Of a stretch of DNA of 48,119 bases, positions 4,746 to 48,106 are shown one piece after another (positions within the stretch are counted from its first letter, which is position 1; each line of letters starts with the position of its first letter). Source of the DNA: a bacterium (lineage in GTDB: Bacteria; Ratteibacteria; UBA8468); NCBI GenBank assembly GCA_030672255.1, contig DAOVGU010000137.1, positions 1 through 48,119 on the forward strand. Direction: 5' to 3'. The notes under the pieces were generated by a model that saw nothing but the letters and a program-made list of their open reading frames with translations, was not told the origin of the DNA and ran no database searches. Made by a program: the position numbers and the translations under genes.

Positions 4746-4899
4746 GTCATTGCGAGCGTGAGCGAAGCAATCCGACGGAGTCGTTGCGAGGAGTGAAACG
4801 ACGAAGCAATCTCAAAGAAGCGAGGGATTGCCACACTCACTTTGTTCGCTCGCAATGACAAGATGAGATTGCCACGTCGCTAATGCTCCTCGCAATGAC
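4746..4899. repeat. family R1 composite element (empty-site version)
   Basis: Almost identical to 5643-5814, but carries ACT where the other copy carries the 19-nt palindrome. Confidence 0.85.
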
Positions 4900-4961
4900 A
4901 CCTTGTGTCAGTTTCTATTCGTGTGTATTCGTGGATAAATAAAAAGCGAAGGGGGGGAATT

Positions 4962-5642: not shown

Positions 5643-5814
5643 GTCATTGCGAGCCTGAAGGCGAAGCAATCCGACGGAGTCGTTGCGAGGAGTGAAACGA
5701 CGAAGCAATCTCAAAGAAGCGAGGGATTGCCACACTCCCCCGTATTTAATACGGGGTTGTTCGCTCGCAATGACAAGATGAGATTGCCACGTCGCTAACG
5801 CTCCTCGCAATGAC
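5643..5814. repeat. family R1 composite element with nested R2 palindrome at 5737-5756
   Basis: GTCATTGCGAG...CCACACTC-CCCCGTATTTAATACGGGG-TTGTTCGCTCGCAATGAC...CTCGCAATGAC. Confidence 0.85.
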
Positions 5815-5831
5815 ATCTGTGGTTAGTTTTT

Positions 5832-6572
5832 ATGAATCAAAGGGAATTAAAGAAACTTCTTCTCAATCTCCAGAAGGGAAAAATTTCTTTAAAGGAGGCT
5901 GTTGCTCGGTTAAAGAATTTCCCCTATCTTGAGCTTGGTTTCGCTAAAGTTGACACCCATCGATCCTTGCGCCAGGGCTTTCCTGAGGTAATCTTTGGAA
6001 AAGGAAAGACAATTGAGCAATTGACGGCGATTATAGAAAAAATAAATGGGATGGAGGAAAACTTTCTGGTAACCAAGTTGGCTCCCCAGGTAGCAAAGAA
6101 AATTTTAAAGGATTTCCCTCATCTCTGTTATTTCCGAGAGGCTCAGATTCTGACCAAGAAAATCCCAAAGAAAAAGGAAGGCTCTATTGTTGTCCTTTCT
6201 GCGGGAACCTCCGATATCCCAATAGCTGAGGAGGCAGTGGTAACCGCCGAAGTCTTAGGAAATAAAGTTGTGAAAATCTACGATGTTGGGGTGGCGGGAA
6301 TCCACCGCCTCTTTAATCATTTAAATCTCATTCAGAAAGCAAAGGTACTGATCGTGGTCGCCGGGATGGAGGGAGCTCTTCCGGCGGTGGTGGGAGGGTT
6401 GGTAAGCCATCCGGTTATTGCTTTACCAACCTCGGTGGGCTATGGCGCCAGTCTGAAAGGAATTTCCGCCTTCTTAACGATGCTTAATTCCTGCTCGCCC
6501 AATGTTGCTACCGTCAATATTGATAATGGCTTTGGTGCCGGTTATCTCGCCAGCCTGATTAACCAAGGATAA
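5832..6572 (+). CDS. larB: nickel-pincer cofactor biosynthesis protein LarB (PurE-like AIR carboxylase domain)
   Basis: 246 aa. Motifs are VDTHRSLRQGFPEVIFGKGKT, then SAGTSDIPIAEEA..VAGMEGALP. Confidence 0.8.
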   Translation: MNQRELKKLLLNLQKGKISLKEAVARLKNFPYLELGFAKVDTHRSLRQGFPEVIFGKGKTIEQLTAIIEKINGMEENFLVTKLAPQVAKKILKDFPHLCYFREAQILTKKIPKKKEGSIVVLSAGTSDIPIAEEAVVTAEVLGNKVVKIYDVGVAGIHRLFNHLNLIQKAKVLIVVAGMEGALPAVVGGLVSHPVIALPTSVGYGASLKGISAFLTMLNSCSPNVATVNIDNGFGAGYLASLINQG

Positions 6573-13153: not shown

Positions 13154-13861
13154 TCATGGTTGCCTCATCTTCAGGATTGCTCTAGCCAGGAGGAGGTCAT
13201 TTTTTGTAGTAATCTTAATATTACAAGGGTCCCCTTTAATGATCTTTGCTGAAATACCAATCCTCTCCACCAAAGAGGCCGAATCCGTTCCCAAAAAATG
13301 ATCCTTCTTTGCCCGGAAATAGGCCTTTTGAATAATTGAGGCTCTGAACCCCTGGGGCGTCTGAACCCTCCAGAAGGATCCTCTATTCTTTATTGTAGAT
13401 TTAATAAAAAAAGAACCTCTCACTTCCTTAATTGTATCGGAAATGGGAAGTCCAACAACAGCCGCTTTATACCTTTTTGCGGCTAAAGTTATCCTTCTAA
13501 TTAACCCTTTAGTAAGGAAGGGTCTGGCTCCATCATGAATAAGGATGAGATCGCAAAGAGAATTTATTCTCTTTAACCCTAAAGCAACGGAATCCTGCCG
13601 GCTCTTTCCTCCTGCAACTATCTCCTTAACCTTGGAGATGCGGTATTTTCTTACCAATCTCCTTGCCTCTGAAATCCTGCTCTCCTCCACTACCAAGATG
13701 ATATCATCAATAAAAGAGGAGGCTTCTAATGTAAGGAGGCTATAGGTAAGGAGAGGCTTTCCTTCGAGGAGGAAAAAGGGTTTATTAAGTTGATAATCAA
13801 GTCTTTTACCCTTTCCGGCTGCCGGCACAACCACTGTTACATAGGGGTCAGGTCTCAACAT
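13154..13861 (-). CDS. ispD: 2-C-methyl-D-erythritol 4-phosphate cytidylyltransferase
   Basis: 235 aa with VVPAAGKGKRL. The ATG and first six codons (MLRPDP) lie inside the R5 terminal repeat. Confidence 0.9.
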   Translation of the reverse strand: MLRPDPYVTVVVPAAGKGKRLDYQLNKPFFLLEGKPLLTYSLLTLEASSFIDDIILVVEESRISEARRLVRKYRISKVKEIVAGGKSRQDSVALGLKRINSLCDLILIHDGARPFLTKGLIRRITLAAKRYKAAVVGLPISDTIKEVRGSFFIKSTIKNRGSFWRVQTPQGFRASIIQKAYFRAKKDHFLGTDSASLVERIGISAKIIKGDPCNIKITTKNDLLLARAILKMRQP

Positions 13862-13976
13862 TTGACAAAACGTTTATAAGTTCAAGATTCATCTCAATTC
13901 AGTATTTTAATAGTAAAATAATTTAAAAAATCTCTAACTTCATCAGGGAAAGTGTCAAATGTTGAGACCTGACCCC
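13844..13976. mobile_element. MITE-like element with 24-bp TIR GGGGTCAGGTCTCAACATTTGACA (family R5)
   Basis: The left TIR is 13844-13867 and its reverse complement is 13953-13976, around an AT-rich core. A second copy lies at 40919-41004. Confidence 0.75.
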
Positions 13977-13981
13977 TTATC

Positions 13982-14956
13982 TTATTTTAATTCAGCAAAG
14001 ATCATTCTTCCACTTACCGTCTGGATGGTAGAGTTGATGGTTACATCTGTAGTTTTGCCCACAGCTTTCTTACCATTTTCCACCACGACCATTGTCCCAT
14101 CCTCGAGATAACCAACGCCCTGACTTTCCTCCTTTCCCTCCCTTATAACCTTCAGGCGAAGAGTTTCTCCGGCCAATAATTTCGGCTTTAAGACGGTAGC
14201 TAAGTTATTAAGATTGAGCACCTCAATATTTTGCACCTCGGCTACTTTAGTGAGATTGTAATCATTGGTCAGAAGTCTTGCATTCATCTCTGCGGTGAGC
14301 TTTACCAATTTGCTGTCCGTTCCAATTAATTCGGGAAAGTCCACCTCGTGAACCCGGACATCTAAGGAGGAATCTTTACGCATCTTGTCAAGCATTTCCA
14401 GCCCCCGGCGACCCTTCTGTCGCCTCAGGTCATTGCTGGAATCGGCAATCGTCTGTAGTTCCTGCATAATGAAGTTTGGAATGATCAAGATATAGGGTAA
14501 AAAACCAATTTTACAGATGTCATATAATCGACCATCGATGATTACGCTGGAGTCAGTGATCAAAATACCCTTACCTTTCTCCTTCTTTCCACCAAAATAG
14601 GGAAGAAGAAAGCCAAACTCCTTTGCCTGTCGCACCGCAATCATTATCCCTAAATAGCAAAAGACAAAATAGAGGCCAAACCTAATGTAAAGTTCGGCCT
14701 CCTTCTCTACCGGAATGAGAAGAAGGAAGTTACTAAGAAGGATAGCGACCACAAGTCCGCTGATTAAACCCAATGCTGCCAGCAACAGTTGCCGAGGAGA
14801 GACCATCTGGAGAAGCCTTTCTAATCCCACGATAATGATCGAGCCTCCAAAACCAAATAAAAGTCCACTGATAGAATTTGAGGTAATATAGTAGCCAGAA
14901 ATGGTGGAAAGGATTACAAAACAGATCCGGATTAAATTAAAACCCATATATTTCAC
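13982..14956 (-). CDS. membrane-anchored PIN + TRAM domain protein (YacL-like)
   Basis: 324 aa. It has N-terminal TM helices, a PIN core (ILITDSSVIIDGR), and a C-terminal TRAM beta-barrel. The yacL-ispD synteny matches Firmicutes. Confidence 0.75.
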   Translation of the reverse strand: MKYMGFNLIRICFVILSTISGYYITSNSISGLLFGFGGSIIIVGLERLLQMVSPRQLLLAALGLISGLVVAILLSNFLLLIPVEKEAELYIRFGLYFVFCYLGIMIAVRQAKEFGFLLPYFGGKKEKGKGILITDSSVIIDGRLYDICKIGFLPYILIIPNFIMQELQTIADSSNDLRRQKGRRGLEMLDKMRKDSSLDVRVHEVDFPELIGTDSKLVKLTAEMNARLLTNDYNLTKVAEVQNIEVLNLNNLATVLKPKLLAGETLRLKVIREGKEESQGVGYLEDGTMVVVENGKKAVGKTTDVTINSTIQTVSGRMIFAELK

Positions 14957-14960
14957 CCCC

Positions 14961-15989
14961 TTATTTTTCCCCTTTGGGTATCCTCAACAGCCTCCAGGGA
15001 TGTCTCTTAATCTCCTTCAGCAAACTCACAATCTCCCGATGCAACTCATCGGAGGCAATAAGTTTGCCAACCGTTCCTTCTTGATTTTCAATCCGGGAAG
15101 CAATCGTATTAACCTTAGAAACAATGGCATTAAACTCTGCGGTAGATTTGCGGAAACTTATGGCCGAAGCCTCTACCTCCTTCAATACCGACCTTAAATC
15201 GGAATAGAGTTTCTCATCCTTGGCTAATTTACCAAGGGTTGATTTCCCTTCCTCGGCTAACTTCAGAAATTTATTGACCCTTTCCGTAGTTTCCTTTAGG
15301 TTGGCTGCCACGAGTTTGCTATTGGTAATTGCCGCTTTGAGATCTTTTTTATTAGCCTCTAAAAGAGTCCGAAAAGCGGTGACTGAACCCTCAGTTTTTT
15401 CTGTTAAACTATTGATATTAGCTATCAATTCCTTTCCTCCTGTGGTAAGGGCTAAAAGATCTTTAAAGATCTTATTTAAGGAGATTTTCATCTCCTCATC
15501 GGCTAAAATATCATTGGCTGCGGCAAGAACCTGGGTAATATCCCGGATCATATCCTCTCCTAAATTGACCAATCTCTCCATGGGAATAGGATCGATCCCA
15601 TTGATAAGCTCCTTATCTCCAATTAAGGGGGTATCGGTAAGGGAGGTAGGCATAATCTCCGCATATCTATCTCCGACAAGGCCAAGGCTTCTGATGAGAA
15701 CCCGAGAACTCCTTCCTAATTTGACATCTTTCTTTAACCAGAGGGTAACAATTACCCTCGGCCTTTCTTCATATACTACCTCTATTTCCCTTACCTCACC
15801 AACCCGCACTCCACTTACCCTCACCGGCGCCCCCGGTTCGAGCCCGGAGACAAAATTGAAAGCAACCTTGACCTCATATCCTTCCTTCCTTAAGGTAAGA
15901 ATGCCCTTGGAAAATATGAATGCACCAAGAATAAGAAAAGCTAAAAGAAGAAAGACACCTACTCTCAATTCTAACGTTATCTTTTTCAT
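14961..15989 (-). CDS. mlaD: MlaD/MCE-domain lipid transport protein
   Basis: Start set at MKKITLELRVGVFLLL (ATG at 15987-15989). It has the MCE domain VAFNFVSGLEPGAPVRVSGVRVGEV and a long coiled-coil tail. Confidence 0.85.
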   Translation of the reverse strand: MKKITLELRVGVFLLLAFLILGAFIFSKGILTLRKEGYEVKVAFNFVSGLEPGAPVRVSGVRVGEVREIEVVYEERPRVIVTLWLKKDVKLGRSSRVLIRSLGLVGDRYAEIMPTSLTDTPLIGDKELINGIDPIPMERLVNLGEDMIRDITQVLAAANDILADEEMKISLNKIFKDLLALTTGGKELIANINSLTEKTEGSVTAFRTLLEANKKDLKAAITNSKLVAANLKETTERVNKFLKLAEEGKSTLGKLAKDEKLYSDLRSVLKEVEASAISFRKSTAEFNAIVSKVNTIASRIENQEGTVGKLIASDELHREIVSLLKEIKRHPWRLLRIPKGEK

Positions 15990-16200
15990 AGTATGTTCGG
16001 AGTATTTCTTCGGCGGCACGCCTCCAGAAATAGTCCTCTCATTAGTGTTTTAAATACAAAGGCGAGGAAAGTTTCTGTAGCGGCCTTGTTAGCGACGAAC
16101 GGGCACGGTGTCCTCGAAGAGGACGAGTGAGGAGCAACGAGAGCGAAGATTTCCTCGCTGGGGAAATCAAGCGTGCCGCCGAAGAAACTTTCCGAGCCTC
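15990..16200. mobile_element. junction TIR element (family R4) filling the mlaF-stop to mlaD-start gap exactly
   Basis: The 17-bp perfect inverted core is TTTCTTCGGCGGCACGC (16005-16021) / GCGTGCCGCCGAAGAAA (16171-16187). The termini touch TGA (16201-16203) and ATG (15987-15989). Confidence 0.75.
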
Positions 16201-16920
16201 TCATATTCTAAGGAATTCTTTGATAATTGGGTTATCCGTTTTTTGAATTTCCAAAGTAGTAAAGGGACCAATGATTTTGCCCTGATACAGCATCCCAATG
16301 CGATCGGCAATCTTATAGGCCGAATTCCTATCATGGGTAACGATAACTGAAGTCACAGAAAATTCGTTATGCAGGGAAAGAATAAGGTTATTTATCGCAT
16401 CGGCCATAATGGGATCTAAACCTGTAGTTGGCTCATCATAAAGCACAATTTCTGGATTGCTGATAAGGGCGCGGGCAAAGGCCACCCTCTTCTTCATTCC
16501 CCCGGAAAGCTGGCTTGGTTTCAACCCCTCGATGCCCTCCAAACCCACCATTTTTAGCAGATCTTCAACCCTTCTCCCTATTTCCCTTTCCTCTAATTCC
16601 ATATGCTCTTTGAGATAAAAAGCAACATTTTCTCCTATTGTGAGAGAGTCAAAAAGGGCATTACTCTGAAAGATGACTCCAAATCTCTTGCGGAATTTAT
16701 TCAACTCTCCTTCTTCAAGTTTAGTAATATTGGTGCCACCAATCGAAATCTCGCCCTCATCAGGTTTTATCAGTGCAAGAATGGTTTTTAAGAGGATGGT
16801 CTTACCACATCCGGTAGGACCAATAATCACTAAACTTTCCCCTTTTTTGACTTCTAAATTCAGATGGTCTAAAACCCTTTTTTCTTTAAAGAAGACAACA
16901 AGCTCCTTTATCTCAATCAT
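16201..16920 (-). CDS. mlaF: ABC transporter ATP-binding protein
   Basis: Start at MIEIKEL (ATG at 16918-16920). Motifs are Walker A GPTGCGKT, signature LSGGMKKR, Walker B IVLYDEP. Confidence 0.9.
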   Translation of the reverse strand: MIEIKELVVFFKEKRVLDHLNLEVKKGESLVIIGPTGCGKTILLKTILALIKPDEGEISIGGTNITKLEEGELNKFRKRFGVIFQSNALFDSLTIGENVAFYLKEHMELEEREIGRRVEDLLKMVGLEGIEGLKPSQLSGGMKKRVAFARALISNPEIVLYDEPTTGLDPIMADAINNLILSLHNEFSVTSVIVTHDRNSAYKIADRIGMLYQGKIIGPFTTLEIQKTDNPIIKEFLRI

Positions 16921-17288
16921 AGTATACTCGGAGTATTTCCTCGAGAGGACGCTCGTCTGGTGACTTCGCTCTGCTTTTCGGTTATTAGTGGGTGCAAGAA
17001 ACCTCAAAGCAAAGCCTCTTTACGGAAACACTCCTCCTCTCTGGTTTACATACAGAGGCGAGGAAGTTTCCTGAAGCGTGCCTTGTTACCGACTCGCGCC
17101 CCTCTGTGTCTCCCCACAAGTGGGGAGAACATTAAAAGAGAAGGACGAGCGAGGGTGCCTGTTGCGATGAATAAAGAGCAACGAGATTAGGCACGCCCGC
17201 CGAGATGTGAGGCGGGCCGGGGGAACGAGAGTGCAGATTCCCTCGCTGGGGGAATCAAGCGTGCCGCCGAAGAAACTTTCCGAGCCTC
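16921..17288. mobile_element. junction TIR element (family R4, larger composite) filling the mlaE-stop to mlaF-start gap exactly
   Basis: The right ~55 nt are identical in pattern to 16146-16200. The left end is AGTATACTCGGAGTATTTCCTCGAGAGG. It contains a nested R3 hairpin at 17109-17128. Confidence 0.7.
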
Positions 17289-18065
17289 TCATAAGAAATA
17301 AAAGAAAGCATTAATGATGAGATCGGCTAAGACAACCAGAAGAAAGGAGAAGGCCACCGAGAGCGTTGTTGCCCTTCCCACACCCTCTGCTCCTCCGGTA
17401 GTCTCAAACCCCTGACGAGAGGCCACAACCACAATAATGAGACCAAAGACAAAGGACTTTAAGAGCCCGATTAAAAGATCCTTGAAGAGAAGAAATTTGA
17501 ATGACTGATAAAGATACATATTTGAATTTATTCCCATCCCATAGACGGCAATGAACCAGCCACCAAAAATAGAAAGAAAAATAGCCATGAGAGTGAGAGC
17601 AGGCATCATAATGATAGCCGCGATGAGCCTTGGTCCCACCAGGTAACTTACAGGATTTACGGCAAGAGAGCGAAGGGCATCAATTTGCTCGGTAACCTGC
17701 ATGCTCCCTATCTCGGCACTGATTGCTGCTCCTACCCTGCTGGCAATAATTAAGGCGACAAAGATGGGGGACAACTCCCGAACAGCGGAGAGGCTAACTA
17801 GACTCCCTACATAGGTCTGGGCTCCTACCCTGCGGAGGGCAGCCGCCGATTGCATGGCCAATATCATCCCTAAAAGTATTGAGATAACACCAACCATTGG
17901 AAAAGACCTGTTCCCAAATTCATCCATCTGCTTGAGAACTTCCCTTCCCCTGAATTTTGAACTAAAAAGAGAGCCAACCGTTCTAAAACCGAGAAGTCCT
18001 AAGGAACCAAAATAGGAAAAGATACCTAATCCATTCCTGCCAAGTCTCTCCAAAAAATTAGTCAT
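17289..18065 (-). CDS. mlaE: ABC transporter permease
   Basis: Start at MTNFLERLG (ATG at 18063-18065). The polytopic protein looks like the MlaE/Ttg2B family. The upstream 60 codons of the ORF are R1 repeat sequence. Confidence 0.88.
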   Translation of the reverse strand: MTNFLERLGRNGLGIFSYFGSLGLLGFRTVGSLFSSKFRGREVLKQMDEFGNRSFPMVGVISILLGMILAMQSAAALRRVGAQTYVGSLVSLSAVRELSPIFVALIIASRVGAAISAEIGSMQVTEQIDALRSLAVNPVSYLVGPRLIAAIIMMPALTLMAIFLSIFGGWFIAVYGMGINSNMYLYQSFKFLLFKDLLIGLLKSFVFGLIIVVVASRQGFETTGGAEGVGRATTLSVAFSFLLVVLADLIINAFFYFL

Positions 18066-18107
18066 AAGTTCAATAGGATGCAGATTTTCACAGATGACAG
18101 TGCAACT

Positions 18108-18242
18108 GTCATTGCGAGGCCGAAGGCCGTGGCAATCCCTCACTTCTATGGGATTGCTTCGTCGTTCCACTCCTCGCAACGACTGCGTCGGATTGCTTCG
18201 CTTCGCTCGCAATGACAAGCGAGGGACCTCGCTCACAATGAC
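18108..18242. repeat. family R1 composite element
   Basis: The first ~55 nt are near-identical to 24249-24303. An extra CGTCGTTCCACTCCTCGCAACGACTGCGTCGGATTGCTTCG module is nested inside. Confidence 0.85.
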
Positions 18243-19693: not shown

Positions 19694-20146
19694 TCACCTT
19701 TCCTTTATTACCCAAACCTTCAACTCGCTTTCTATCCCGGGAGCCAACTTCAAAGGAACCTTATAGACCCCTAACCTCTTTATTGGTTCGGGTAGAAGGA
19801 TCGATTGCTTTTTTAGTTTGATCCCATGCTCCTGGAAAAGAGCGGTAATAATCTCCTCCTTTGTCACCGAGCCAAAAAGCCTCTCGGCCTCTCCTACCCG
19901 AGCGGCGATGGTGCAGGAGATCTTTCCTATTTTTTCTGCCAATCTTCTTGTGGCCTCTTTCTCCCTTTCCTCCTTTTCTCTCTTCCTCTTCTTTTCTACC
20001 TCTAATAGTTTGATATTACTTATCGTCGCTGAATAGGCCCATCCTTTCGGGAGAAGAAAATTTCTGGCATAACCATCCTTTACCTCAATCACCTCTCCCC
20101 CTTTTCCTAATTTTTCCACATCCTTCCTTAGAACGATTTTCATCAT
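19694..20146 (-). CDS. rplI: 50S ribosomal protein L9
   Basis: 150 aa. N-terminus is MKIVLRKDVEKLGKGGEVIEVKDGYARNFLLPKG. Confidence 0.95.
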   Translation of the reverse strand: MMKIVLRKDVEKLGKGGEVIEVKDGYARNFLLPKGWAYSATISNIKLLEVEKKRKREKEEREKEATRRLAEKIGKISCTIAARVGEAERLFGSVTKEEIITALFQEHGIKLKKQSILLPEPIKRLGVYKVPLKLAPGIESELKVWVIKER

Positions 20147-20279
20147 ATGTTCGGACTATCTTCTTCAGCGGCACGCTTGTTTGGTCTCGCACCGATGGTG
20201 CTCGGTCAGGGTGCGAGATGTGAGCACCCTGCCTGACGAAGCGATAGCTGAGAAGACCTCTCGAGGAAATACTCCGAGC
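20147..20279. mobile_element. junction TIR element (family R4) filling the rpsR-stop to rplI-start gap exactly
   Basis: Left end ATATGTTCGGACTATCTTCTTCAGC, right end GCTGAGAAGACCTCTCGAGGAAATACTCCGAGCC. It touches TAG (20280-20282) and ATG (20144-20146). Confidence 0.75.
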
Positions 20280-24232: not shown

Positions 24233-24436
24233 AGATTAACACAGGAATGTCATTGCGAGGCCGAAGGCCGTGGCAATCCCTCACTTCTATGGGATTGCTT
24301 CGCTTCGCTCGCAATGACAGTTGCATTGTCATCTGCGTTTATCTGCGTCCAATAAATTACACCCCCACCTACCTCCCCCCTTGAGGGGGAGGATTGAGGA
24401 GAGGGGTAACTTTGAAATTCCATACGATAAATTATT
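24233..24436. repeat. intergenic mosaic of five repeat families in series
   Basis: In order: AACCACAGATTAACACAG; R1 (24249-24318); ATCTGCGTTTATCTGCG; R3 (24361-24406); the 21-mer TTGAAATTCCATACGATAAAT (24412-24432). Confidence 0.85.
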
Positions 24437-25534: not shown

Positions 25535-26617
25535 TTACAGAATCAGCATCGCATCGCCATAACTGGCGAAGCGGTATTTTCCTTTGATTGCCTCAGAATA
25601 GGCTCTCTGAATTAATTCCTTCCCGGCAAAGGTAGCGACTAAAAGAAAGAGGGTGGTAGATGGAAGATGAAAATTGGTAAGCATGCTATCTGTAATCTTA
25701 AATCTATAGCCGGGGTAGATATATAGTGAGGTCCAGCCTTTCCTGGGCTCTACATAACCATCGGTGTTGGCTGTTGTTTCTAAAACCCGCACACTGGTTG
25801 TTCCTACCGCAATGATTCTTTTGCCCTCTTTTTTAGTCTTATTAATCAATTTAGCTGCACCAGGAGGAAGTTCAAAATATTCCTTTTCCATCTGATGCTT
25901 TTCAATATCTTCCTCTCTGATTGGCTTAAAGGTGCTCCAGCCAATATTTAAGGTAACAAAGGTGATGCTCACTCCTTTTTCTTTCACTCTCTGCAAAAAT
26001 CCTTCAGTAAAATGTAAGCCAGCGGTAGGAGCCGCAATTGCTCCATTTCTTTTGCTATAGACGGTCTGGTAATAAGTCATATCAATAGGTAAGGGTTTTC
26101 GCTTAATGTAGGGAGGTAGAGGAATCTCGCCAATCTTCTTCAATAGCTCCTCTATCCTTCCCGGATAAAGAAACTCTACTTTGTACTTCCCATTCTTCTT
26201 TTCTAAGATTTTTGCTTTTATTCCTTCATTGAAGAAGATTGTTGAGCCAACCCTTATTCTTGGTCTGGCCAATGCTTCATAGATACTTTTCCCCTCACCT
26301 CTATCCGGGGGATGCACTCCCTCAAGGGGAGTGGAGCCCCCGGAAATTAGGCGGGGGTGTAACCTACGAAGCACCAAAAGTTCTGCCCTTCCTCCGGTTT
26401 CCTTTTTTCCTTTGAGCCGGGCTGGAATCACCTTGGTATTATTTAAGACCAAAAGGTCCCCTGAGGAAAGATAGTCGAGAAGAGCAGGAAAGATGCGATG
26501 CTCAATCCTTTTCTCCTTTCTTTTGATGACCAATAGCCTTGCCCTTTCTCTCTTTAAAAGTGGCATCTGGGCAATTAGCTCCTTTGGCAGGAAGTAGTCA
26601 AAATCGGAAAGTCTCAT
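25535..26617 (-). CDS. queA: S-adenosylmethionine:tRNA ribosyltransferase-isomerase
   Basis: 360 aa. Motifs are MRLSDFDYFLPKELIAQ...PTAGLHFT...SYGDAMLI. Confidence 0.95.
   Translation of the reverse strand: MRLSDFDYFLPKELIAQMPLLKRERARLLVIKRKEKRIEHRIFPALLDYLSSGDLLVLNNTKVIPARLKGKKETGGRAELLVLRRLHPRLISGGSTPLEGVHPPDRGEGKSIYEALARPRIRVGSTIFFNEGIKAKILEKKNGKYKVEFLYPGRIEELLKKIGEIPLPPYIKRKPLPIDMTYYQTVYSKRNGAIAAPTAGLHFTEGFLQRVKEKGVSITFVTLNIGWSTFKPIREEDIEKHQMEKEYFELPPGAAKLINKTKKEGKRIIAVGTTSVRVLETTANTDGYVEPRKGWTSLYIYPGYRFKITDSMLTNFHLPSTTLFLLVATFAGKELIQRAYSEAIKGKYRFASYGDAMLIL
26291..26359. repeat. R3-type triple-nested palindrome in frame in queA
   Basis: Read on the minus strand as (L)HPRLISGGSTPLEGVHPPDRGEG. 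Arms are CACCCCCGCC/GGTGAGGGG, TCCGGGGG/CCCCCGGA, CACTCCCC-TTGA-GGGAGTG. Confidence 0.8.
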
Positions 26618-26631
26618 AATACATTATAGCT

Positions 26632-26724
26632 GTCATTGCGAAGCCGAAGGCTGTGGCAATCTCTGACTTCTCTGAAGAGAGAGATTCTTCGTCCGCCAAT
26701 AAATATTGGCGGACTCAGAATGAC
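26632..26724. repeat. R1-like element (GTCATTGCGAAG ... CTCAGAATGAC)
   Basis: Its right end supplies the last codons and the TGA stop (26715-26717) of the GT2 gene. Confidence 0.7.
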
Positions 26725-36167: not shown

Positions 36168-38194
36168 ATAAACCTATATTTAATTAGGGTCCAGACAGCA
36201 ATAAACCAATCCTTCAGCCTGATCTTCTTTCCCTCGGCTACCCCTCTTGGCCTATGGGAAATTGGCACTTCTTTAATCCTTATTCCTCTTTTAGCTACCT
36301 TAGCCGTAACCTCAGGACAGAATTCAAATCCTTTGCATTTTAAATTTAGGCTTTTTAAGAGATTGGCCTCGAAAACCTTATAGCAGGTTGGCTCATCGGT
36401 AATATGGGTCCGATAGAGCAAATTAGCCAAAATGCTCAAGCTTCTGCCACCGAGATAGAAATACCAGCCCGCCAAGGACTTCGGTTTTGAACTCTGACCC
36501 AGGACCCTGGAACCATAAACAACCTTTGTCTCTTCCTTTATTATTGGCTCTACCAACATATAATACTCATCGGGGTTATATTCCAAATCGGCATCCTGGA
36601 TGATGACAATATCCCCAGTCACCTCTTTTAATCCAGTGCGAATTGCAGTTCCCTTTCCATATTTTTTTGGCCGGCTGATAAGCTTAATCTCATTATTGCC
36701 GTCTTTCTGCTTAATAATTTCCTTTAAGACCTCTTTGGTCTTATCGGTAGAACCATCCTCGACAATGATAATCTCCTTCTTTAAATTGACCGCCCTTACT
36801 CTATGGATAATTTCGGCAATCGTTTTTTCCTCATTATAGACCGGCATAATCACAGAGAGTTTCATCTCTTTAACCACAGATGTCATTGCGAGGAGCCTTA
36901 GCGACGTGGCAATCCCTCGCTTCTTTGAGATTGCCACGGCACTTCGTGCCTCGCAACGACTCCGTCGTTTTGAATTTTTAATTGTTCTACACAGCCCTCC
37001 CCCCGCAAGAGCATAAACAAGAGGCATTATGGGAATTCTATACCTGGGAATAGCAAAAAGAAGGCTATGAATAAAAGTAAAATAAAAAATCATTAAGAGA
37101 GGGATAAATAGTTCTTTTCTCTTTTCCTTTAGACAAAGGTATAACCCTGAAAGAAAGAAAAAGAGAAGAATATAGTGGAAGGTAAAGATAAAAGCCTTCT
37201 GTAAATTTTTCCCCTCTAAAACCCTCTTTCCTCCGGGAATCTGAAGCCAAAACCTACCAAATTTCTTTAGACATAACAAAGAATAACCACCGGGATTATT
37301 TTTGATATTCTTTACCCCCTCGGAAAAAAACTTTTTATCTGCATCAATCTGAGAAAGTCCTCTTACCAAATTTTCCTTATCAGAGAGGTTCTTATAATTG
37401 TAGTCTCCATTCCAGGGAAGGTAACTTCCAACCCAGAGGTTAAAACCCCCGCCAGTTCCTACTGGAATAAATTCTTTAAAGACAATGTAATTCCTTACTG
37501 TCCAGGGAAGAATTGTTCCGGCCATTGTCAGAGAAAAAATTACCACAAAAATAAGTTTCTTAAATCTTTTTCTGGGGTACAAAACACCCCCTCCCTTCTC
37601 TTCCCCTCCCTCGAGGGGAGGGGCAAGGGGAGGGTGAAAAAACAATAAGCCAAGTAACAAGAAAAGGGGGAATAGTAAAGTAACTGGCCGGCAAAGGGTT
37701 GAGAATCCCAAAAAAATGCCGGATGCTACCCAATCCCCCCTTTTTTTGCTTTCCAAAGCCTTCATCAGCAATATCACCGCTATTGTCAATAAGAATGTGG
37801 TAAGGGTCTCGGTGAGAATATAGGAGTTTGAGGCAACGAGTGAAGGACAGATAACCGCAGCACCTGCCCCCAAGATAGCAGTTTTTTTATTCTTGAAAAT
37901 TCTCTCTCCAATGAGATAAACAAATAGGCAAATGATTGCCCCTAAAATGCTCTGAATAATCCTTACCGCTAAAAAATTATGTCCAAAAATAAGATAAACA
38001 ATCGCTAAAAAAGATGGATATAAAGGTGCCCGATGTAAATTGATAGAAAATCCTAAACCATTGGCAATATGAAGTGCCATTTTATTATAATCAATGCTAT
38101 CCGGGGCAGAAAGAGGGAAAAGAACAATAAAGATAAAGCGGATAAAAAAAGCAGAGAGAAAAATGAATATCAAGGTTTTCCTTTTATTCACCAC
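36161..38194 (-). CDS. continuous ORF joining a GT-C (ArnT-like) membrane glycosyltransferase to a Dpm1/ArnC-like GT2 domain through an R1 repeat
   Basis: 677 aa. Residues 1-~410 are polytopic. The linker CEARSAVAISKKRGIATSLRLLAMTSVV is the translated repeat. It is followed by MKLSVIMPVYNEEKT..VEDGSTDKT..QDADLEY. Confidence 0.75.
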   Translation of the reverse strand: MVNKRKTLIFIFLSAFFIRFIFIVLFPLSAPDSIDYNKMALHIANGLGFSINLHRAPLYPSFLAIVYLIFGHNFLAVRIIQSILGAIICLFVYLIGERIFKNKKTAILGAGAAVICPSLVASNSYILTETLTTFLLTIAVILLMKALESKKRGDWVASGIFLGFSTLCRPVTLLFPLFLLLGLLFFHPPLAPPLEGGEEKGGGVLYPRKRFKKLIFVVIFSLTMAGTILPWTVRNYIVFKEFIPVGTGGGFNLWVGSYLPWNGDYNYKNLSDKENLVRGLSQIDADKKFFSEGVKNIKNNPGGYSLLCLKKFGRFWLQIPGGKRVLEGKNLQKAFIFTFHYILLFFFLSGLYLCLKEKRKELFIPLLMIFYFTFIHSLLFAIPRYRIPIMPLVYALAGGGLCRTIKNSKRRSRCEARSAVAISKKRGIATSLRLLAMTSVVKEMKLSVIMPVYNEEKTIAEIIHRVRAVNLKKEIIIVEDGSTDKTKEVLKEIIKQKDGNNEIKLISRPKKYGKGTAIRTGLKEVTGDIVIIQDADLEYNPDEYYMLVEPIIKEETKVVYGSRVLGQSSKPKSLAGWYFYLGGRSLSILANLLYRTHITDEPTCYKVFEANLLKSLNLKCKGFEFCPEVTAKVAKRGIRIKEVPISHRPRGVAEGKKIRLKDWFIAVWTLIKYRFIC
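36882..36972. repeat. family R1 element translated as an interdomain linker
   Basis: GTCATTGCGAGGAGCC...GGCAATCCCTCGC...CTCGCAACGACTCCGTCG. There is no stop codon in the host frame. Confidence 0.85.
37585..37636. repeat. R3 nested palindrome in frame in the GT-C domain
   Basis: Read as (F)HPPLAPPLEGGEEKGGGV. The inner hairpin is CCCCTCCC-TCGA-GGGGAGGGG. Confidence 0.85.
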
Positions 38195-39302
38195 CTACCT
38201 CCTCATAGAGATTTAATGTCTCTTTAGCACATCTTTCCCAGGAGAAGAGTTTTGCCCGCTTTATTCCCTTTTCTCTCATCTCCTCGGCTAATTCCTTATT
38301 ACTTAAAACCTTCTCCATTAGCTTTGCCATCTCTTCTGTATCATCGGGATTAACTGAGAGGGCAGCATCTCCTGCTACCTCAGGAAGGGAGGAGATGTTG
38401 GAAGTAATTGCCGGGGTGCCAGAGGCCATCGCTTCCAGAACCGGAAGACCAAACCCCTCGTAAAGGCTGGGGTAGATAAAAAGGGAGGCGCAATTATAGT
38501 AAAGGGGTAATAGTTCCTCGGGTAGATAACCGGTGAAGAAAACCTCTTCCTCCAGCCCCAACCTCTTCACCACCTTATAGATATTCTGGTACTCTTCTCC
38601 CTTTTCTCCCACAATCATTAATCTTTCCTTCCTTCCCTTTTCCCTCATATTTTTGTAGGCCTTGATAAGATTAAGGATATTCTTCCTTTTCTTTAATGTT
38701 CCCACGTAGAGAATGAAGGAATCCAAAATCCGATACTTTCTCCTGAAATCCTGTAAATCTTTTTTCTCAATGGGATGATAGGAGGAATCAATACCTAAGT
38801 TAATTACCGCAATCTTTTCTGAGGGAATATTTAATAATTTCATGGTATCTTTCTTTGTCGCAGAGGAGACGGCAATGATTTTTTCTACTCTCTTTGCTGC
38901 TGCCGGTATCATCCTTTCATAAAAGAGCCTCTTTAAGAGATTATGTTTTTTTGGAAAAAGCAAAAAGAGCATATCATGAAATGTAACGAGAGATTTCCAG
39001 CCAAACCTTACCAAAGGGGTGGTATAGCGTGGAGAATGAAGAAGGTTAATTTTATATCTTTTAAGCAAAAAGGGGAAGGTAATCTGTTCCCAGAGAAGCC
39101 TCAAAGCTCTTGGCATGCTCTTGATGCCGATAAGCCGAAAATTGGCGCCTAACTCGAATCTCCTTACATTCCTCTTCTCTACAAAGATAAAATATTCATT
39201 TTTCCTATCTATAAGGGAGAGGTTGTTGATCAGATTCAGCAAATAAAAACCGGCTCCTCCTAACTTCTCCGGCAGCAGTGTCGCATCAATTCCAATTCTC
39301 AT
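38184..39302 (-). CDS. family 4 (GT-B, group 1) glycosyltransferase
   Basis: 372 aa. The C-terminal motif is [18 protein letters not shown]. Confidence 0.85.
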
Positions 39303-40936
39303 TTATCTGAAGAAAGAATTTGCTTTGCTCCTTCTGCCTCGGGGTCATACATTAGCGCTATTCCGGCCTCTTTTTGCGCAAGATCAAATTCACCTAAATT
39401 AAGGTAGGTGGTTGCCAGAAGCTCGTGTCCCAAAGGATTGAAAGGCAAAAGGGAGACCAAACTTTTTGCCCTTTTTAAGGCTAAGGGGAAATTGCCTTCA
39501 GCAATATCATTGTTCGCATTCTTATAGGTAAGAAAGGAAAAACTTTCCAGATGGACAGAGCCGATTTTCTCCCCTTTCCAGTTATTGACAAAGGAGAAAA
39601 GTAAGAAAAGAACAGAAAGGGCCACTACGACAGGAATGTATTTTCTTCCCTTGACCTTAAAAAAGAGCCAATCAATAAAGAAAGCGGCAAATAGTATTAA
39701 ACACCCTACGGCGGGAAGTCGATAGCGACTGGTAACAAAGAAACCGATGACCCAGATGATATTGCACAAGGTAAAGAAAAATAAAAGAAGAAATTTCCTC
39801 TTACTTAGAGCAAGAAATAGACCAAGGATACCTAAAGGAACGATAAGACCAAAGCCAAACAATGGGAGTTTAAGGGTTTTAGTAATTTTCTGCAAGAGAT
39901 AAATATTTAAGTTCTGGGGCCATTCATATGAGTTGAAAAAGAGCAGAAATTTGTTTCCTTGCAGCCTCCAGAAAACTTTGGAAAAGAGCGGGGCTAAGGG
40001 TTTTTCCGGGGCAATGTAAAGACCGATAGAATCAAGACTATTGCCAATTTTATAGTTGGCCGGTCCATTGGAGCAGATGGGTACAAACTGACCGGATACC
40101 CGCCAATTCCTGATTGTCGCGGGAGAGATAATTATCGCCATCAAAAGAATTACAATCACCCAGGCTAAAAAGGGATGAATACCCCCTCCTTTTTTTCCTC
40201 CCACAAGGGGAGGAAGTAAAAAAGATTTTTTCTCTTCCCCTCTCGCGAGGGGAGAAGAAGAAATTGTTGCTGTTTTCCCCTCCCTTGATGGGAGGGGTTG
40301 GGGAGGGAGAGGGTGGGGGGAAGTTTTCTTGGGATAGAAATATAGTCCAATAAGCAAAAAGGGAAGGAACAATAAAATTGTCGGTTTAACTAAAGCGGAC
40401 AGCCCCATCACCAATCCTACCAGGACCCATCTTTTATAACTTCTTTCCCTTAGCGCCCAATAGATGACAAAGATGAAAAGGATATTTAAAAAGAGAATTA
40501 GAGTATCACTTAAGAGTGTTGTGGAATAAAAAATAAATGGCCGATAAAATCCAGCAAAGAGACAGGCAAGAAGCCCCACTCTTTCATTAAACAACCATTT
40601 GCCTAAAAGAAATAAGAGGAGACAAAGGAGGGTATCCAAGAGAATCTGAATGAAACCAACAGCAAAGTAACTATGGCCAAAACCTTTATAAATTGCCGCA
40701 ACAAAGTATGGGTAGCCTGGAGCCATATAAAAGACCTTACCATCTCCCGCCCAGGGATTTTTTACAAGCTTTCCTGCCCAATTATCAAATGTCCTCTGGT
40801 CATATTTGGTCATCAGACCTGCATTAAAGAAAACACTCTCGCGAAACTCAAGAAGATAAGAAAGCCTCAAAAAAAAGGCAAAAATAAGGATGAGACCTAA
40901 ATAAAGGTAAGGAGATTTGGGGTCAGGTCTCAACAT
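39299..40936 (-). CDS. GT-C fold membrane glycosyltransferase with C-terminal TPR repeats
   Basis: The ATG at 40934-40936 (MLRPDP) lies inside the R5 TIR. The N-terminus is polytopic and ArnT-like. The tail is TPR-like (ATTYLNLGEFDLAQKEAGIALMYDP). Confidence 0.75.
   Translation of the reverse strand: MLRPDPKSPYLYLGLILIFAFFLRLSYLLEFRESVFFNAGLMTKYDQRTFDNWAGKLVKNPWAGDGKVFYMAPGYPYFVAAIYKGFGHSYFAVGFIQILLDTLLCLLLFLLGKWLFNERVGLLACLFAGFYRPFIFYSTTLLSDTLILFLNILFIFVIYWALRERSYKRWVLVGLVMGLSALVKPTILLFLPFLLIGLYFYPKKTSPHPLPPQPLPSREGKTATISSSPLARGEEKKSFLLPPLVGGKKGGGIHPFLAWVIVILLMAIIISPATIRNWRVSGQFVPICSNGPANYKIGNSLDSIGLYIAPEKPLAPLFSKVFWRLQGNKFLLFFNSYEWPQNLNIYLLQKITKTLKLPLFGFGLIVPLGILGLFLALSKRKFLLLFFFTLCNIIWVIGFFVTSRYRLPAVGCLILFAAFFIDWLFFKVKGRKYIPVVVALSVLFLLFSFVNNWKGEKIGSVHLESFSFLTYKNANNDIAEGNFPLALKRAKSLVSLLPFNPLGHELLATTYLNLGEFDLAQKEAGIALMYDPEAEGAKQILSSDK
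40182..40320. repeat. three tandem R3-type hairpins in frame in the GT-C/TPR gene
   Basis: Read as SPHPLPPQPLPSREGKTATISSSPLARGEEKKSFLLPPLVGGKKGGG. Hairpin loops are ATCA, GCGA and TTGT. Confidence 0.85.
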
Positions 40937-41004
40937 TTGACAAAAATACAAAAACTTTTAATTTACCATTATCAAACTTTGTCAAATGTTGAGACCTGAC
41001 CCCT
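40919..41004. mobile_element. second copy of the R5 TIR element
   Basis: It has the same 24-bp TIRs as 13844-13976 and a different, shorter core. It contains the stop of the upstream SDR gene and the ATG of the downstream GT-C gene. Confidence 0.75.
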
Positions 41005-41950
41005 TTATTATTTTCAGGAGTGCCTCCTGGAGATTGACCCTGGGGGAGAAATTTATCTGGCTTTGAATCTTGCCGATATCGGGAACTCTTCTTTCCATAT
41101 CCACAAATCCTTCTCTATAGGCTTTTTGGTAAGGGATATGAATAATTTTAGACTCGCTTTTGGTTAATCTCTTGATAAGTTTTGCCAGTTCATTGATTGT
41201 GATAGTACCCTGGGGATTCCCGATATTGAAGACCTCCCCATATGCAGAGGGTTCTTTTGCTAAGGATACCATTGCCTCCACCACATCAGCCACATAGGTA
41301 AAGGAACGGAGCTGCTTTCCGTCTCCAAAGACGGTAATCGGTTCTCCATTAAGCGCCTGTTCAATGAATTTTGGGACAACCATACCATACTTCCCGGTCT
41401 GTCGGGGACCGATAGTATTAAAAAGCCTGACCACAATTACGGGTAATCCTTTCTCCTGGAAGTAGGCAAAGGAGATAAATTCATCAAGCAGTTTGGTACA
41501 ACCATAACTCCACCTTCTCACCTTTGGGGAACCAAGAAGAGAATCACTACTTTCCGAAAAGGGAATTTTTTCATTCTTTCCGTAGACCTCAGAGGAGGAG
41601 GTAAGCAGAACCTTTTTCTTAAAACAGCTGGCAAGTTCCAGGACATTTTGCGTTCCCTCTATATTGGTTCTGATACTCTTAATGGGCTCTTCAATTACCA
41701 TTCTTACCCCAACAGCGGCGGCGAGATGAAAGATAAAATCATTTCTTTTGATAACTTTTTCCAGTATAGCCCGGTTTAAGACTGAATCAATGGTACAGGA
41801 AAAATTTGGATGGTCCTTGATCCTGGCAATATTTTGTAAGTCCCCTGAGGAAAGGTCATCAAGAACCTCAACTCTTTCCCCTCTCTCAAGCAAATACTCT
41901 GAGAGGTGGGAGCCAATAAATCCGCACCCTCCGGTAATTAAAGTTTTCAT
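40982..41950 (-). CDS. UDP-glucuronate decarboxylase-type SDR (ArnA C-domain / UXS / UAXS-like)
   Basis: 322 aa. It has TGGCGFIGSH and RRWSYGCTKLLDE (the RW-x-Y-xxx-K signature of the ArnA/UAXS group). The C-terminal GSGLNI* is encoded by the R5 TIR. Confidence 0.7.
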   Translation of the reverse strand: MKTLITGGCGFIGSHLSEYLLERGERVEVLDDLSSGDLQNIARIKDHPNFSCTIDSVLNRAILEKVIKRNDFIFHLAAAVGVRMVIEEPIKSIRTNIEGTQNVLELASCFKKKVLLTSSSEVYGKNEKIPFSESSDSLLGSPKVRRWSYGCTKLLDEFISFAYFQEKGLPVIVVRLFNTIGPRQTGKYGMVVPKFIEQALNGEPITVFGDGKQLRSFTYVADVVEAMVSLAKEPSAYGEVFNIGNPQGTITINELAKLIKRLTKSESKIIHIPYQKAYREGFVDMERRVPDIGKIQSQINFSPRVNLQEALLKIIKGSGLNI

Positions 41951-41964
41951 TTGACAGCGTAGCT

Positions 41965-42102
41965 GTCATTGCGAGCCCAAAGGGCGTGGCAATCCTTCCT
42001 GCTGTCATTCCCGTGTAAACGGGAACCTATTATTAGATTCCTGCTTCCGCAGGAATGACAAACTCCAACGGAGTTGACTGAAGTATTTACCCTCGCAATG
42101 AC
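41965..42102. repeat. R1 element with a nested GTCATTCC...GGAATGAC unit (42004-42059)
   Basis: GTCATTGCGAGCCC...GGCAATCC / GTCATTCCCGTGTAAACGGGAAC...ATTCCTGCTTCCGCAGGAATGAC / ...CTCGCAATGAC. Confidence 0.8.
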
Positions 42103-43988: not shown

Positions 43989-44185
43989 GTCATTGCGAGT
44001 GAACAACCCCGTATTAAATACGGGGGAGCGTGGCAATCCCATCTTGTCATTGCGAGTGAACAAAGTGAGCGTGGCAATCCCTCGCTTCTTTGAGATTGCG
44101 GAGCCTGTTCCGAGCCTGTCAATGAGATTGCTTCGGGATTTTATCCCTCGCAATGACAGGCGAAGAATCCCATGCCTCGCAATGA
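43989..44185. repeat. array of R1 units, the first carrying the R2 palindrome (44007-44026)
   Basis: GTCATTGCGAGTGAACAA[CCCCGTATTAAATACGGGG]GAGCGTGGCAATCCC is followed 20 nt later by the same unit with AGT at that point. Confidence 0.85.
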
Positions 44186-44194
44186 CACTTCGTG

Positions 44195-45562
44195 TCATTT
44201 TAATCTCTTCTCCCAGTCCTTTATTCTTTTGGCAACCTGCTTTGGGGAGGTTCCGCCAAAGGAGGTCTTGTCCTTCACTGAAGCCTCAACCTTTATTCTT
44301 TTCAGGGCATCCTTTTCAAATTTATCCGAGAACCTTCTTAACTCAGGTAAAGTTAGCTCCTTCAATCCTCTTCCTGAATCTCTGAGATGCTTAAGGATTT
44401 TACCCACAATCCGATGCGCTTTCCGAAAAGGAATCCCCTTTATCACCAAGTATTCTACCAAATCGGTTGCGGTTGTCTCCCCCCTTTCTGCCATTTTCTT
44501 CATCCTTTCCTTATCGAGTCTGATTTTTGGCAGAAATTTTGTAGAGATACTTAGGCAGGAACTCACAATCTCCATAATCTCAAAGAATCCTTCTTTATCC
44601 TCCTGCATATCCCGATTATAGGACAAAGGGAGGTTTTTCATCAAAGAAAAGAGTCCAAGAAGTTCACCATAGACCCTGGCTGTCTTTCCCCGGATTAGTT
44701 CCGGAATATCCGGGTTTTTCTTGTTTGGCATTAAAGAGGAGCCGGTAGCAAAAGACTCATCGATCTCTAAAAACCCAAATTCGGTACTATTCCAAAGGAT
44801 AATTTCCTCACTTAGGCGGGAAAGGTGCATCATAAGAATAGCGCTTGCGGAACCTACCTCAAGTAAGAAGTCTCTGTCACTGACCGCATCGATAGAGTTT
44901 TCTGCCACCTTGGTAAATCCCAGGACTTTTGCCGTAAATTTTCTATCGATGGGCAGGGAAGTACCAGCACCGCTTGCCGCTCCTAAAGGAGAAACATCAA
45001 CCCTGAGATAACCATCATTAAAGCGCTGCTTATCTCTCTCCAACATTTCCAGGTAAGCTAATAGCCAGTGGCTAAAAAGGATGGGCTGGGAGTGTTGGAG
45101 ATGGGTATAACCGGGCATGACGACATTCTGATACCTTCTTGCCACCCGCAAAATTGTTGTTTGAAATTCGGTGATTTGAGAGCTAATCTTTTTGATTTTC
45201 TCCTTCAGATAAAGCCTTTCATCCAGGGCAATCTGGTCATTGCGGGAACGAGCGGTATGAAGTTTCTCTCCTAAAACCCCAATTTTTTCTGTTAAGCAGC
45301 GTTCGATTGCCGTATGAATGTCTTCATCATTTTTAAAAATAAATTTTTCTTCTTCTATCTCCTTTTTAATTTCCTTTAAGTTTTTAATAATTTTTCTCGC
45401 CTCTTTCTCTTTAATAATCTTGCATTTAGCCAGCATTTTTATATGAGCAACACTGCCTAAGATATCATAATCTGCCAATTTCTTATCCACAGATAAAGAA
45501 GAGGTAAATTCCTCCACCTCCTTGTTCAGTTTCTTTTTAAATCTTGAATCCCAGAGTTTCAT
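44195..45562 (-). CDS. argH: argininosuccinate lyase
   Basis: Start at MKLWDSRF (ATG at 45560-45562). The signature is GSSLMPNKKNPD. Confidence 0.93.
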   Translation of the reverse strand: MKLWDSRFKKKLNKEVEEFTSSLSVDKKLADYDILGSVAHIKMLAKCKIIKEKEARKIIKNLKEIKKEIEEEKFIFKNDEDIHTAIERCLTEKIGVLGEKLHTARSRNDQIALDERLYLKEKIKKISSQITEFQTTILRVARRYQNVVMPGYTHLQHSQPILFSHWLLAYLEMLERDKQRFNDGYLRVDVSPLGAASGAGTSLPIDRKFTAKVLGFTKVAENSIDAVSDRDFLLEVGSASAILMMHLSRLSEEIILWNSTEFGFLEIDESFATGSSLMPNKKNPDIPELIRGKTARVYGELLGLFSLMKNLPLSYNRDMQEDKEGFFEIMEIVSSCLSISTKFLPKIRLDKERMKKMAERGETTATDLVEYLVIKGIPFRKAHRIVGKILKHLRDSGRGLKELTLPELRRFSDKFEKDALKRIKVEASVKDKTSFGGTSPKQVAKRIKDWEKRLK

Positions 45563-47883: not shown

Positions 47884-47976
47884 TTTTGGTACGGTGTTCA
47901 CTGAGTACTTACTTACAGTTTAAAGTTAAAAGTTGAGAGTTAAAAGGTAAATATTCAGTAAAGTACGTTCCATCCT

Positions 47977-48106
47977 GTCATTGCGAGCGAACAACCCCGT
48001 ATTAAATACGGGGGAGTGGGGCAATCCCTCGCTTCTTTGAGATTGCTTCGTCGTTAATACTCCTCGCAACGACTGCGTCGGATTGCTTCACTTCGTTCGC
48101 AATGAC
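47977..48106. repeat. R1 composite element with nested R2 palindrome (47995-48015)
   Basis: GTCATTGCGAGCGAACAA-CCCCGTATTAAATACGGGGG-AGTGGGGCAATCCCTCGC...TTCGCAATGAC. Confidence 0.85.

Follow-up and report, generated by a model that had tools for sequence, protein, structure and literature searches.

How does a gene begin once its own start codon is gone, and what is the repeated DNA from which two neighbouring reading frames now seem to open? This question is raised by a contig of 48,119 nt from a bacterium of the Ratteibacteria (lineage UBA8468; DAOVGU010000137.1, assembly GCA_030672255.1), referred to in its whole length as the window, where two short elements bounded by the same 24-bp terminal inverted repeats (TIRs, whose single copies we call arms) separate ispD and a GT-C glycosyltransferase gene from the genes upstream of them. 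An initial annotation held that the arms carry a portable start, a portable stop and a possible promoter piece. Comparing the two junctions with orthologous loci, and following the 24-mer to a transposase gene that it bounds in other genomes, we arrive, at a probability of about 0.8, at the reading that both pairs are non-autonomous derivatives of a TIRYT transposon, resembling miniature inverted-repeat transposable elements (MITEs) and REPINs, whose donation of a start and a stop appears to be a by-product kept at these loci by chance or selection.

Gene ends at the two junctions

Four exact copies of the 24-mer GGGGTCAGGTCTCAACATTTGACA, arranged in two perfectly inverted pairs, lie in the window (none expected from 100 shuffles), and no further or degenerate arm was found there at up to 3 mismatches. 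The AT-rich cores of 85 and 37 nt have no mutual similarity, which bears out the earlier description of a TIR-bounded element with differing AT-rich cores. The limits first given for element 1 (13844-13976) stand, and the end of element 2, first placed at 41004, is corrected here to 41003. On the minus strand the order is the PIN/TRAM gene, element 1 and ispD at locus 1, and the SDR gene, element 2 and the GT-C gene at locus 2 (Table 1). Read outward, the arm offers one open frame with an ATG (TGTCAA-ATG-TTG-AGA-CCT-GAC-CCC), and the remaining two frames meet a TGA; read inward, one frame of the three meets a stop (...GGG-TCA-GGT-CTC-AAC-ATT-TGA). Both downstream open reading frames (ORFs) open at the arm ATG with MLRPDP, as the initial annotation had it.

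Related loci display the ispD junction in three states. The site is empty in locus L117, where the stop of the upstream PIN/TRAM gene abuts the ispD ATG (...AAA-TAA-ATG-TAT-GTG-ACA). It is occupied in L115 and L116 (TAA-GATAA-[arm-core-arm]-CT-ATG-TAT-CTG), with the native ATG 2 nt past the arm and the arm ATG out of frame with ispD. The window (TAA-GATAA-[arm-core-arm]-TAT-GTA-ACA) matches L115/L116 at the left junction and is 89% identical to them in the core, but lacks the five bases CTATG, so that its arm ATG falls in frame with ispD. Read together, the three junctions indicate that start donation at ispD is a later 5-bp deletion, secondary to an older insertion common to two lineages. By its IspD matches, the window comes from a relative of Candidatus Omnitrophota. 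The proteins differ at the same point: the closest IspD orthologues open M-YVTAIVPAAG and M-YLTAVVPAAG, and the window protein, assigned to IspD by Pfam at E = 1.4e-61, opens MLRPDP-YVTVVVPAAG. Between the window and L115 about 11% of the core positions differ, and none of the 48 arm bases does; by our own estimate, zero change in 48 bases at the core rate has a chance of roughly 0.004.

At the second locus the empty site, in L121, has an overlapping stop and start (...TCC-TCC-TGATG-AAA-CGC-TGG-AAA-TCT-CCT-TAC); its GT-C protein begins MKRWKSPYLYLG, and TIR-free orthologues begin MKRWKSPY. In the window the same stretch reads [arm]-AAA-TCT-CCT-TAC, and the native GT-C start is gone. Comparison with orthologue DNA therefore finds the native ATG missing from both genes and the arm ATG or the adjacent TTG remaining; the conserved N-termini are otherwise preceded by the GTG that is codon 10 of ispD and, for GT-C, by a TTG within the core. 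For GT-C nothing else precedes the first membrane helix, and the next in-frame start past the arm is a TTG inside that helix. Seven close GT-C orthologues (67-78% identical) open MWRPDP, MSRPDP, MSRFDP, MSRSDP or MSKPDP (pattern M[LWS][RK]xDP), and their linkers up to the conserved SPYLYLG helix vary by whole codons (0, +2 or +5 residues, and one in-frame deletion). At the position of the native ATG, L120 and L123 have TTA or ATA. Both arms of L123 hold the identical variant GGGGTCAAATCTTGACATTTGACA, and the tandem right arms in L120 and L123 point to repeated activity at this site.

The upstream SDR gene is altered in turn at its other end. Its native tail in the empty site of L121, ...RII-EYHKNIISS* (asterisk, stop), is replaced in the window by ...KII-KGSGLNI* from the arm and in L123 by ...KII-GSNLDI* from the variant arm, which confirms the proposal that the end of the SDR gene and its TGA lie inside the arm. 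The arm-derived tail GSGLNI* also closes an unrelated ORF in L092 and the IspD of the orthologue P0003.

Some further features of these genes were observed in passing. The C-terminal tails of close IspD orthologues (P0002-P0014) all differ and appear to derive from repeats; they include KGSGLNI* from a solo arm (L115 3686-3709, 4 nt before argJ), RRYTQIKK...KFENTKKD, HELTRINTKRNK and PHSNPPPRVGREEGGG. Gene ends in the lineage of the window seem to be routinely rewritten by small repeats. In the closest relative of the window (L119 1-1500, DAOWFY010000153) an IS110-family transposase gene stands directly upstream of GT-C in place of SDR and the left half of the element, with the arm remnant ATGTGGAGACCTGACCCC in frame (MWRPDP). 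The window GT-C gene itself holds an in-frame insert of about 47 aa at 40170-40320 on the minus strand (TSPHPLPPQPLPSREGKTATISSSPLARGEEKKSFLLPPLVGGKKGGG), absent in four orthologues and shorter in two. This insert coincides with the repeat family CCTCCCC...GGGGAGG, so a second repeat family seems to be tolerated in a coding loop.

Table 1. Positions of the two elements and the adjoining genes in the window
Feature	Position	Strand	Remarks
Arm 1a, 24-mer	13844..13867	+	3' arm in gene (minus) orientation; ATG 13859-13861 opens the IspD ORF
Core 1, 85 nt, AT-rich	13868..13952		Matched solely by the orthologous L115/L116 copy, 89% over 75 nt
Arm 1b, 24-mer reverse complement	13953..13976	-	5' arm in gene orientation; 5 nt past the PIN/TRAM TAA
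Arm 2a, 24-mer	40919..40942	+	3' arm in gene orientation; ATG 40934-40936 opens the GT-C ORF
Core 2, 37 nt, AT-rich	40943..40979		No homologue found by similarity search
Arm 2b, 24-mer reverse complement	40980..41003	-	Codes the SDR end GSGLNI and TGA 40982-40984
ispD	13154..13861	-	Native ATG of orthologues missing; ORF opens at the arm ATG, MLRPDP
PIN/TRAM membrane protein gene, upstream of ispD	13982..14956	-	TAA 13982-13984, 5 nt outside arm 1b
GT-C glycosyltransferase gene (PMT_2, family 39-like)	39299..40936	-	N-terminus MLRPDP supplied by arm 2a
SDR epimerase/dehydratase gene	40982..41950	-	Ends KGSGLNI*, TGA within arm 2b

A repeat family that bounds a Y1 transposase gene

The central 20-mer of the arm was scanned across one genome per species and arms were counted at up to 2 mismatches within matched loci; the counts and phylum labels in this paragraph apply among the matches listed. 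The exact 20-mer is present in at least 113 stretches of DNA from metagenome-assembled genomes (MAGs) labelled as Atribacterota (most), Aerophobetes, Desulfobacterota, Nitrospirota, Aminicenantes, Aquificota, Clostridia, Dadabacteria and others, a spread in which the bin labels of short contigs are possibly wrong; the same 24-mer in MAGs of so many phyla argues for horizontal spread. The conserved block among the 172 arms is exactly the 24-mer, positions 1-8 being nearly invariant in 170 of them; the outer flank is variable but A-rich (position -1 is A in 50% and T in 28%), and on the inner side a frequent T is followed by variable sequence. The arms form 64 inverted pairs, whose cores range continuously from about 4 to 174 nt, and larger elements of 413 and 540 bp overall, together with eight clustered near 1.0 kb overall. 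They stand as singles, dimers and clusters: the window holds dimers, the arm behind ispD in L115 stands alone, and tandem arms are present in L021, L120 and L123.

The full unit, about 1.04 kb long and bounded by the 24-mer, carries a transposase gene. Seven of the eight units near 1.0 kb encode proteins of 305-321 aa, and the eighth, in L090, is degraded. These proteins have the Pfam domain Y1_Tnp, with Bac_DnaA_C in that of L032 (8.7e-11), an invariant NHYH (HUH) motif and an invariant tyrosine in a Y-x-H-x-N-P motif. The NCBIfam model "REP-associated tyrosine transposase" gives 80.4 and 63.5 bits for two of them at a cutoff of 80, and the IS200 model 16.5 bits, below its cutoff of 55. A profile of the seven transposases matches DnaA domain IV structures in its C-terminal part (7e-5) and the TnpA_REP structure 4er8 at an E of 0.56 only; phmmer with one transposase found no match in the PDB. 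Homologous proteins number more than 1687 at E <= 1e-20, and homologues carry the JGI name 'REP element-mobilizing transposase RayT'. Many lie on contigs of about the size of the element (~1036-1038 bp), as is typical of a repeat present in many copies. Hippea maritima DSM 10411 (CP002606; L124 and L125, 9983-11024) has two full copies that are identical to each other and whose arms (GGGGTCAAATCTCAACATTTGACA and GGGGTCGCATCTCAACATTTGACA) differ slightly; being in culture, this host would lend itself to study of the element. About 11 further bases outside the left arm are common to these copies.

Shorter elements retain transposase remnants of 100, 73, 57 and 35 aa, in a size series with shrinking remnants that descends from 1040 to 540, 413 and 222 bp, and at least some short pairs are on this ground internal-deletion derivatives. 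The window copies would likewise be two 24-bp TIRs left after loss of the transposase gene, as a deletion derivative or a dimer. Their arms would pair into a long hairpin on single-stranded DNA, by analogy with Y1/RAYT systems, which a transposase made elsewhere, in the genome or in the community, would cut and move in trans. Both copies appear to have inserted at tight stop/start junctions of co-directional genes, where an arm that is open outward and has a stop in one inward frame would make the damage tolerable. At ispD the gene's own ATG was removed by the later 5-bp deletion and the arm ATG has most likely taken over; GT-C seems to have been left with no other usable start, and SDR ends in the arm. 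The coding effects would on this account be by-products, kept by chance or selection at these loci, with no general function of the element behind them.

Among known systems, the passages on TIRtrons/TIRYTs in Di Nocera et al. 2013 (PMC3733652) give the TIR motif as GGGGWSAS and describe TIR repeats as singles, dimers or clusters, and the passages on TnpA_REP in Quentin et al. 2018 (PMC6006769) give subclass 2.1 a C-terminal helix-turn-helix (HTH) of Bac_DnaA_C, HTH_23 or HTH_28 type, with a Bac_DnaA_C-like domain in subclass 2.1.2. As far as those passages go, the present element agrees with TIRtrons: its arm starts GGGGTCAG and fits GGGGWSAS (PMC3733652), the same inverted repeats flank a RAYT-like Y1/HUH gene (in related loci rather than in the window), and arms also stand alone as singles, dimers and clusters; judged by its domains, the transposase has a C-terminal Bac_DnaA_C-like HTH like that of subclass 2.1 (PMC6006769). 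It departs from the TIRtron accounts in its capture of gene starts and stops, of which the TIRYT passages of PMC3733652 and PMC6006769 make no mention, and in a 24-bp end that is nearly identical across many uncultivated phyla despite transposase identities of only 32-41% between clades. Neither the 24-mer nor MLRPDP turned up in the papers that could be searched. Judged by its arm motif and the domains of its transposase, the element adds a new sequence family to a known kind, the TIRYT-associated TIR repeats, and is MITE/REPIN-like.

Small TIR elements at gene junctions, with promoter pieces in their ends, also include the Correia elements (CREE/NEMIS) of Neisseria and the RPEs of Rickettsia, which fold into long hairpins as RNA and change or lengthen the reading frames beside them. 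The element works like Correia elements and bacterial MITEs, as a TIR element at a gene junction by which reading frames are altered; unlike Correia elements, it has an unrelated sequence, a transposase of a different class, no target duplication that we could see and, in the window copies, no completed promoter. With IS200/IS605 it shares the Y1/HUH fold (Pfam PF01797), and it probably also acts through single-stranded DNA as they do, but where those elements have subterminal hairpins and lack TIRs it has perfect 24-bp TIRs and its transposase an added DNA-binding domain. It resembles a generic MITE in being short, non-coding and TIR-bounded, through internal deletion that is seen at other loci and is probable for the window copies.

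Use of the arm start codon and other readings of the element

The initial annotation generalised from the two loci to a portable promoter, start and stop, and this generalisation did not survive. ORFs of at least 80 codons that leave the outer edge of an arm are about equally common in each of the three frames (14:11:14 over 172 arms, among the matches listed), and those that run into arms, by which a stop would be donated, show no clear bias (11:14:4, same matches). In frames without the arm ATG the genes have their own start a few codons from the arm, so the elements habitually sit tight against gene ends; none of 40 scored pairs lies inside a long ORF. The frame of the arm ATG is not favoured, and donation is an occasional outcome and no design feature.

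The promoter piece fares similarly. Each TIR does contain TTGACA, but the boxes, which had been described as pointing both into and out of the element, face the core and would act outward only by read-through of the whole element. By the criteria of the promoter scan, none of the four boxes in the window has a -10 partner and neither element has a promoter-like site; a terminator scan found no terminator-like tail at the elements, its lone hit lying inside the GT-C coding region and being unrelated. In full copies with an intact TTGACA, by contrast with the window copies, a hexamer starting with TA stands exactly 17 nt downstream in 10 of 10, with the form TAnnnT in 6 of 10, and in one clade this -10-like hexamer is separated from the transposase ATG by 0-6 nt. 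Given this spacing, the TTGACA that closes the left arm on its inner side is most simply read as the -35 of the promoter of the parent transposase.

That the arm ATG is the working start of ispD and GT-C is inferred from the comparisons above, and several observations weigh against it or against the origin that we propose for the element. The gene calls that open MLRPDP are software output and no evidence of start use. In the mRNA the arm ATG lies within a perfect 24-bp helix, which should hinder initiation, and at the ispD locus the upstream stop comes 5 nt before the stem, so that a terminating ribosome would open the stem only partly. One other start candidate exists for ispD, the GTG at codon 10, three codons past the arm (MVVPAAG...). 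As to origin, tblastn found no transposase gene in the 48-kb window, so mobilisation in trans is assumed; similarity searches gave no match of the window cores to full elements, and it is from other loci that their origin by deletion is argued. The flanks of the listed loci contain no consistent target-site duplication or clear target motif beyond the A-rich outer flank, and the occupied ispD site differs from the empty one by an extra GATAA and CT beside the element.

On one rival reading the element is as described but its ATG is unused, so that IspD starts from the GTG, GT-C starts from an internal TTG or is a decaying gene, and MLRPDP is a gene-caller artefact. We consider this possible but doubtful. 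It draws on the absence of frame enrichment, on the burial of the ATG in a stem of about -48 to -56 kcal/mol, on the lack of a Shine-Dalgarno sequence before the arm ATG, and on the GT-C orthologue P0125, which is called from an internal TTG although the arm ATG is in frame in L123. Most genes of the window, however, also lack such a sequence (about 8 of 34 have any 4-mer of it), and its absence at the arm ATG is for this reason not informative. A GT-C start at the next TTG would cut the conserved first membrane helix YLYLGLILIFAFF, which is found in all orthologues; the linkers between ATG and helix vary as translated sequence would, by whole codons; the native GT-C ATG has decayed in L120 and L123; and the 5-bp loss at ispD exactly frames the arm ATG. 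The MVVPAAG start, for its part, would yield a protein shorter than 15 of the 16 aligned orthologues. The ispD gene most likely starts at the arm ATG.

A different reading takes the element for a regulatory device of the host, kept for its function and not as selfish DNA; it could be an operator pair, an RNase III or attenuation hairpin, or a translational-coupling cassette. The pairs fold to -56.5 and -48.2 kcal/mol as RNA and to -33.1 and -29.3 kcal/mol as single-stranded DNA (z -10.3 and -7.6, the z-scores of the pair folds lying between these two values). Both copies stand where the empty sites have a stop and a start that abut or overlap (TAAATG and TGATG), the stem opposes the upstream stop and the arm ATG, a ribosome that ends at the arm TGA of locus 2 would have melted nearly the whole stem, and the arms are perfectly kept at the orthologous site. 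Against such a device, its sequence also borders a transposase gene and is found across phyla, the loops are not conserved, frame bias is absent, the stop of locus 1 lies outside the stem, and the elements have no terminator-like tail, promoter-like site or Rfam family (at gathering thresholds Rfam matches only one tRNA in the window and nothing at either element). We regard it as improbable. A coupling or RNase III role of the stem is possible, and it is unlikely, in our estimation, that the arm is a portable translational-coupling cassette, with the inward TGA and outward ATG opposed in the stem after insertion at an overlapping stop/start junction, so that none but ribosomes terminating on the upstream gene would expose the start and expression would stay coupled; if true, this would explain how insertions survive in compact genomes and why arms are perfectly conserved in place.

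We give equally little credence to a classical REP/REPIN doublet that depends on a domesticated RAYT, inherited vertically and in single copy, with no IS-like TIRYT. In the original description of RAYTs, by Bertels and Rainey in 2011, REPINs are reportedly inverted short repeats with a spacer that form a hairpin and are non-autonomous, and would be moved by a Y1 transposase encoded by the gene that such repeats flank. The window pairs resemble them as inverted doublets that fold into a long hairpin; the NCBIfam match and the JGI naming of the transposase fit as well, as do arms that stayed identical at 48 of 48 bases while the core fell to 89%. Unlike a REP, though, the single arm is not palindromic: it does not fold on itself (-1.0 kcal/mol, z -0.23) and lacks the GTAG tag, and is on this ground no classical REP. 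One of the two NCBIfam scores falls under the cutoff (63.5 vs 80). Unlike a RAYT, the unit of gene and TIRs is multi-copy, as in Hippea maritima and on the many element-sized contigs, its 24-mer recurs across many phyla, which argues for horizontal spread, and its transposase has an extra DnaA-like domain at the C-terminus.

Least credible of all, and very improbable, is a MITE of a DDE transposon (IS630/Tc1-like or IS5-like) or an integron attC-like site, for which perfect TIRs, a small AT-rich core, an A/T-rich flank and a faint echo of attC core sites in the arm (GTTGAGA/TCTCAAC) could be cited, but every unit of about 1 kb with an intact ORF (seven of eight) encodes a Y1/HUH protein and never a DDE one, no target-site duplication is seen, and the elements lie among housekeeping genes whose synteny is conserved. 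An integron attC site proper was rejected as a candidate, since direct reading departs from the consensus, an integrase is absent and the gene context is contrary.

Neighbouring repeats and what the junctions mean

Other repeats crowd the window. Modular small repeats built of GTCATTGCGAG...GCAATC units and the palindrome CCCCGTATTAAATACGGGG occur at 2604-2682, 4746-4918, 5643-5833, 18092-18216, 24233-24318, 26616-26685, 36871-36972, 41949-42018, 43989-44201 and 47971-48106, and several of them end about 15-25 nt before start codons, an example being TGTCAA-ATG of SDR at 41950. A conserved block, ...GTGCCGC(C/T)GAAGAA..TCCGAACATA.T-ATG, stands directly before at least four minus-strand genes (1874-1950, 20138-20214, 15977-16021, 16131-16205 and 17219-17293), and its copies have 92-95% identity over 75-77 nt. 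The block is possibly a leader or promoter that these genes have in common, or a further repeat.

For the TIRYT-derived elements, the consequences reach first into annotation. Proteins that start with MLRPDP or MSRPDP, or end in GSGLNI, in Omnitrophota, Atribacterota and other uncultivated groups carry transposon-derived ends, and to ignore this leads to wrong starts, wrong stops and spurious "conserved" termini. If the arm ATG is used, the N-terminal peptides to be expected are LRPDPYVTVVVPAAGK and (M)LRPDPK. The combination of a nearly invariant 24-bp end with diverged transposases gives a handle on DNA recognition by TIRYTs, for which the TIRYT passages of the accounts cited above describe no experimental probing. 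The ispD locus, finally, is a rare case in which the empty, the occupied and the start-handed-over stages are all preserved in related genomes, and in which a gene of the isoprenoid (MEP) pathway appears to have passed to a start codon borne by a transposon.

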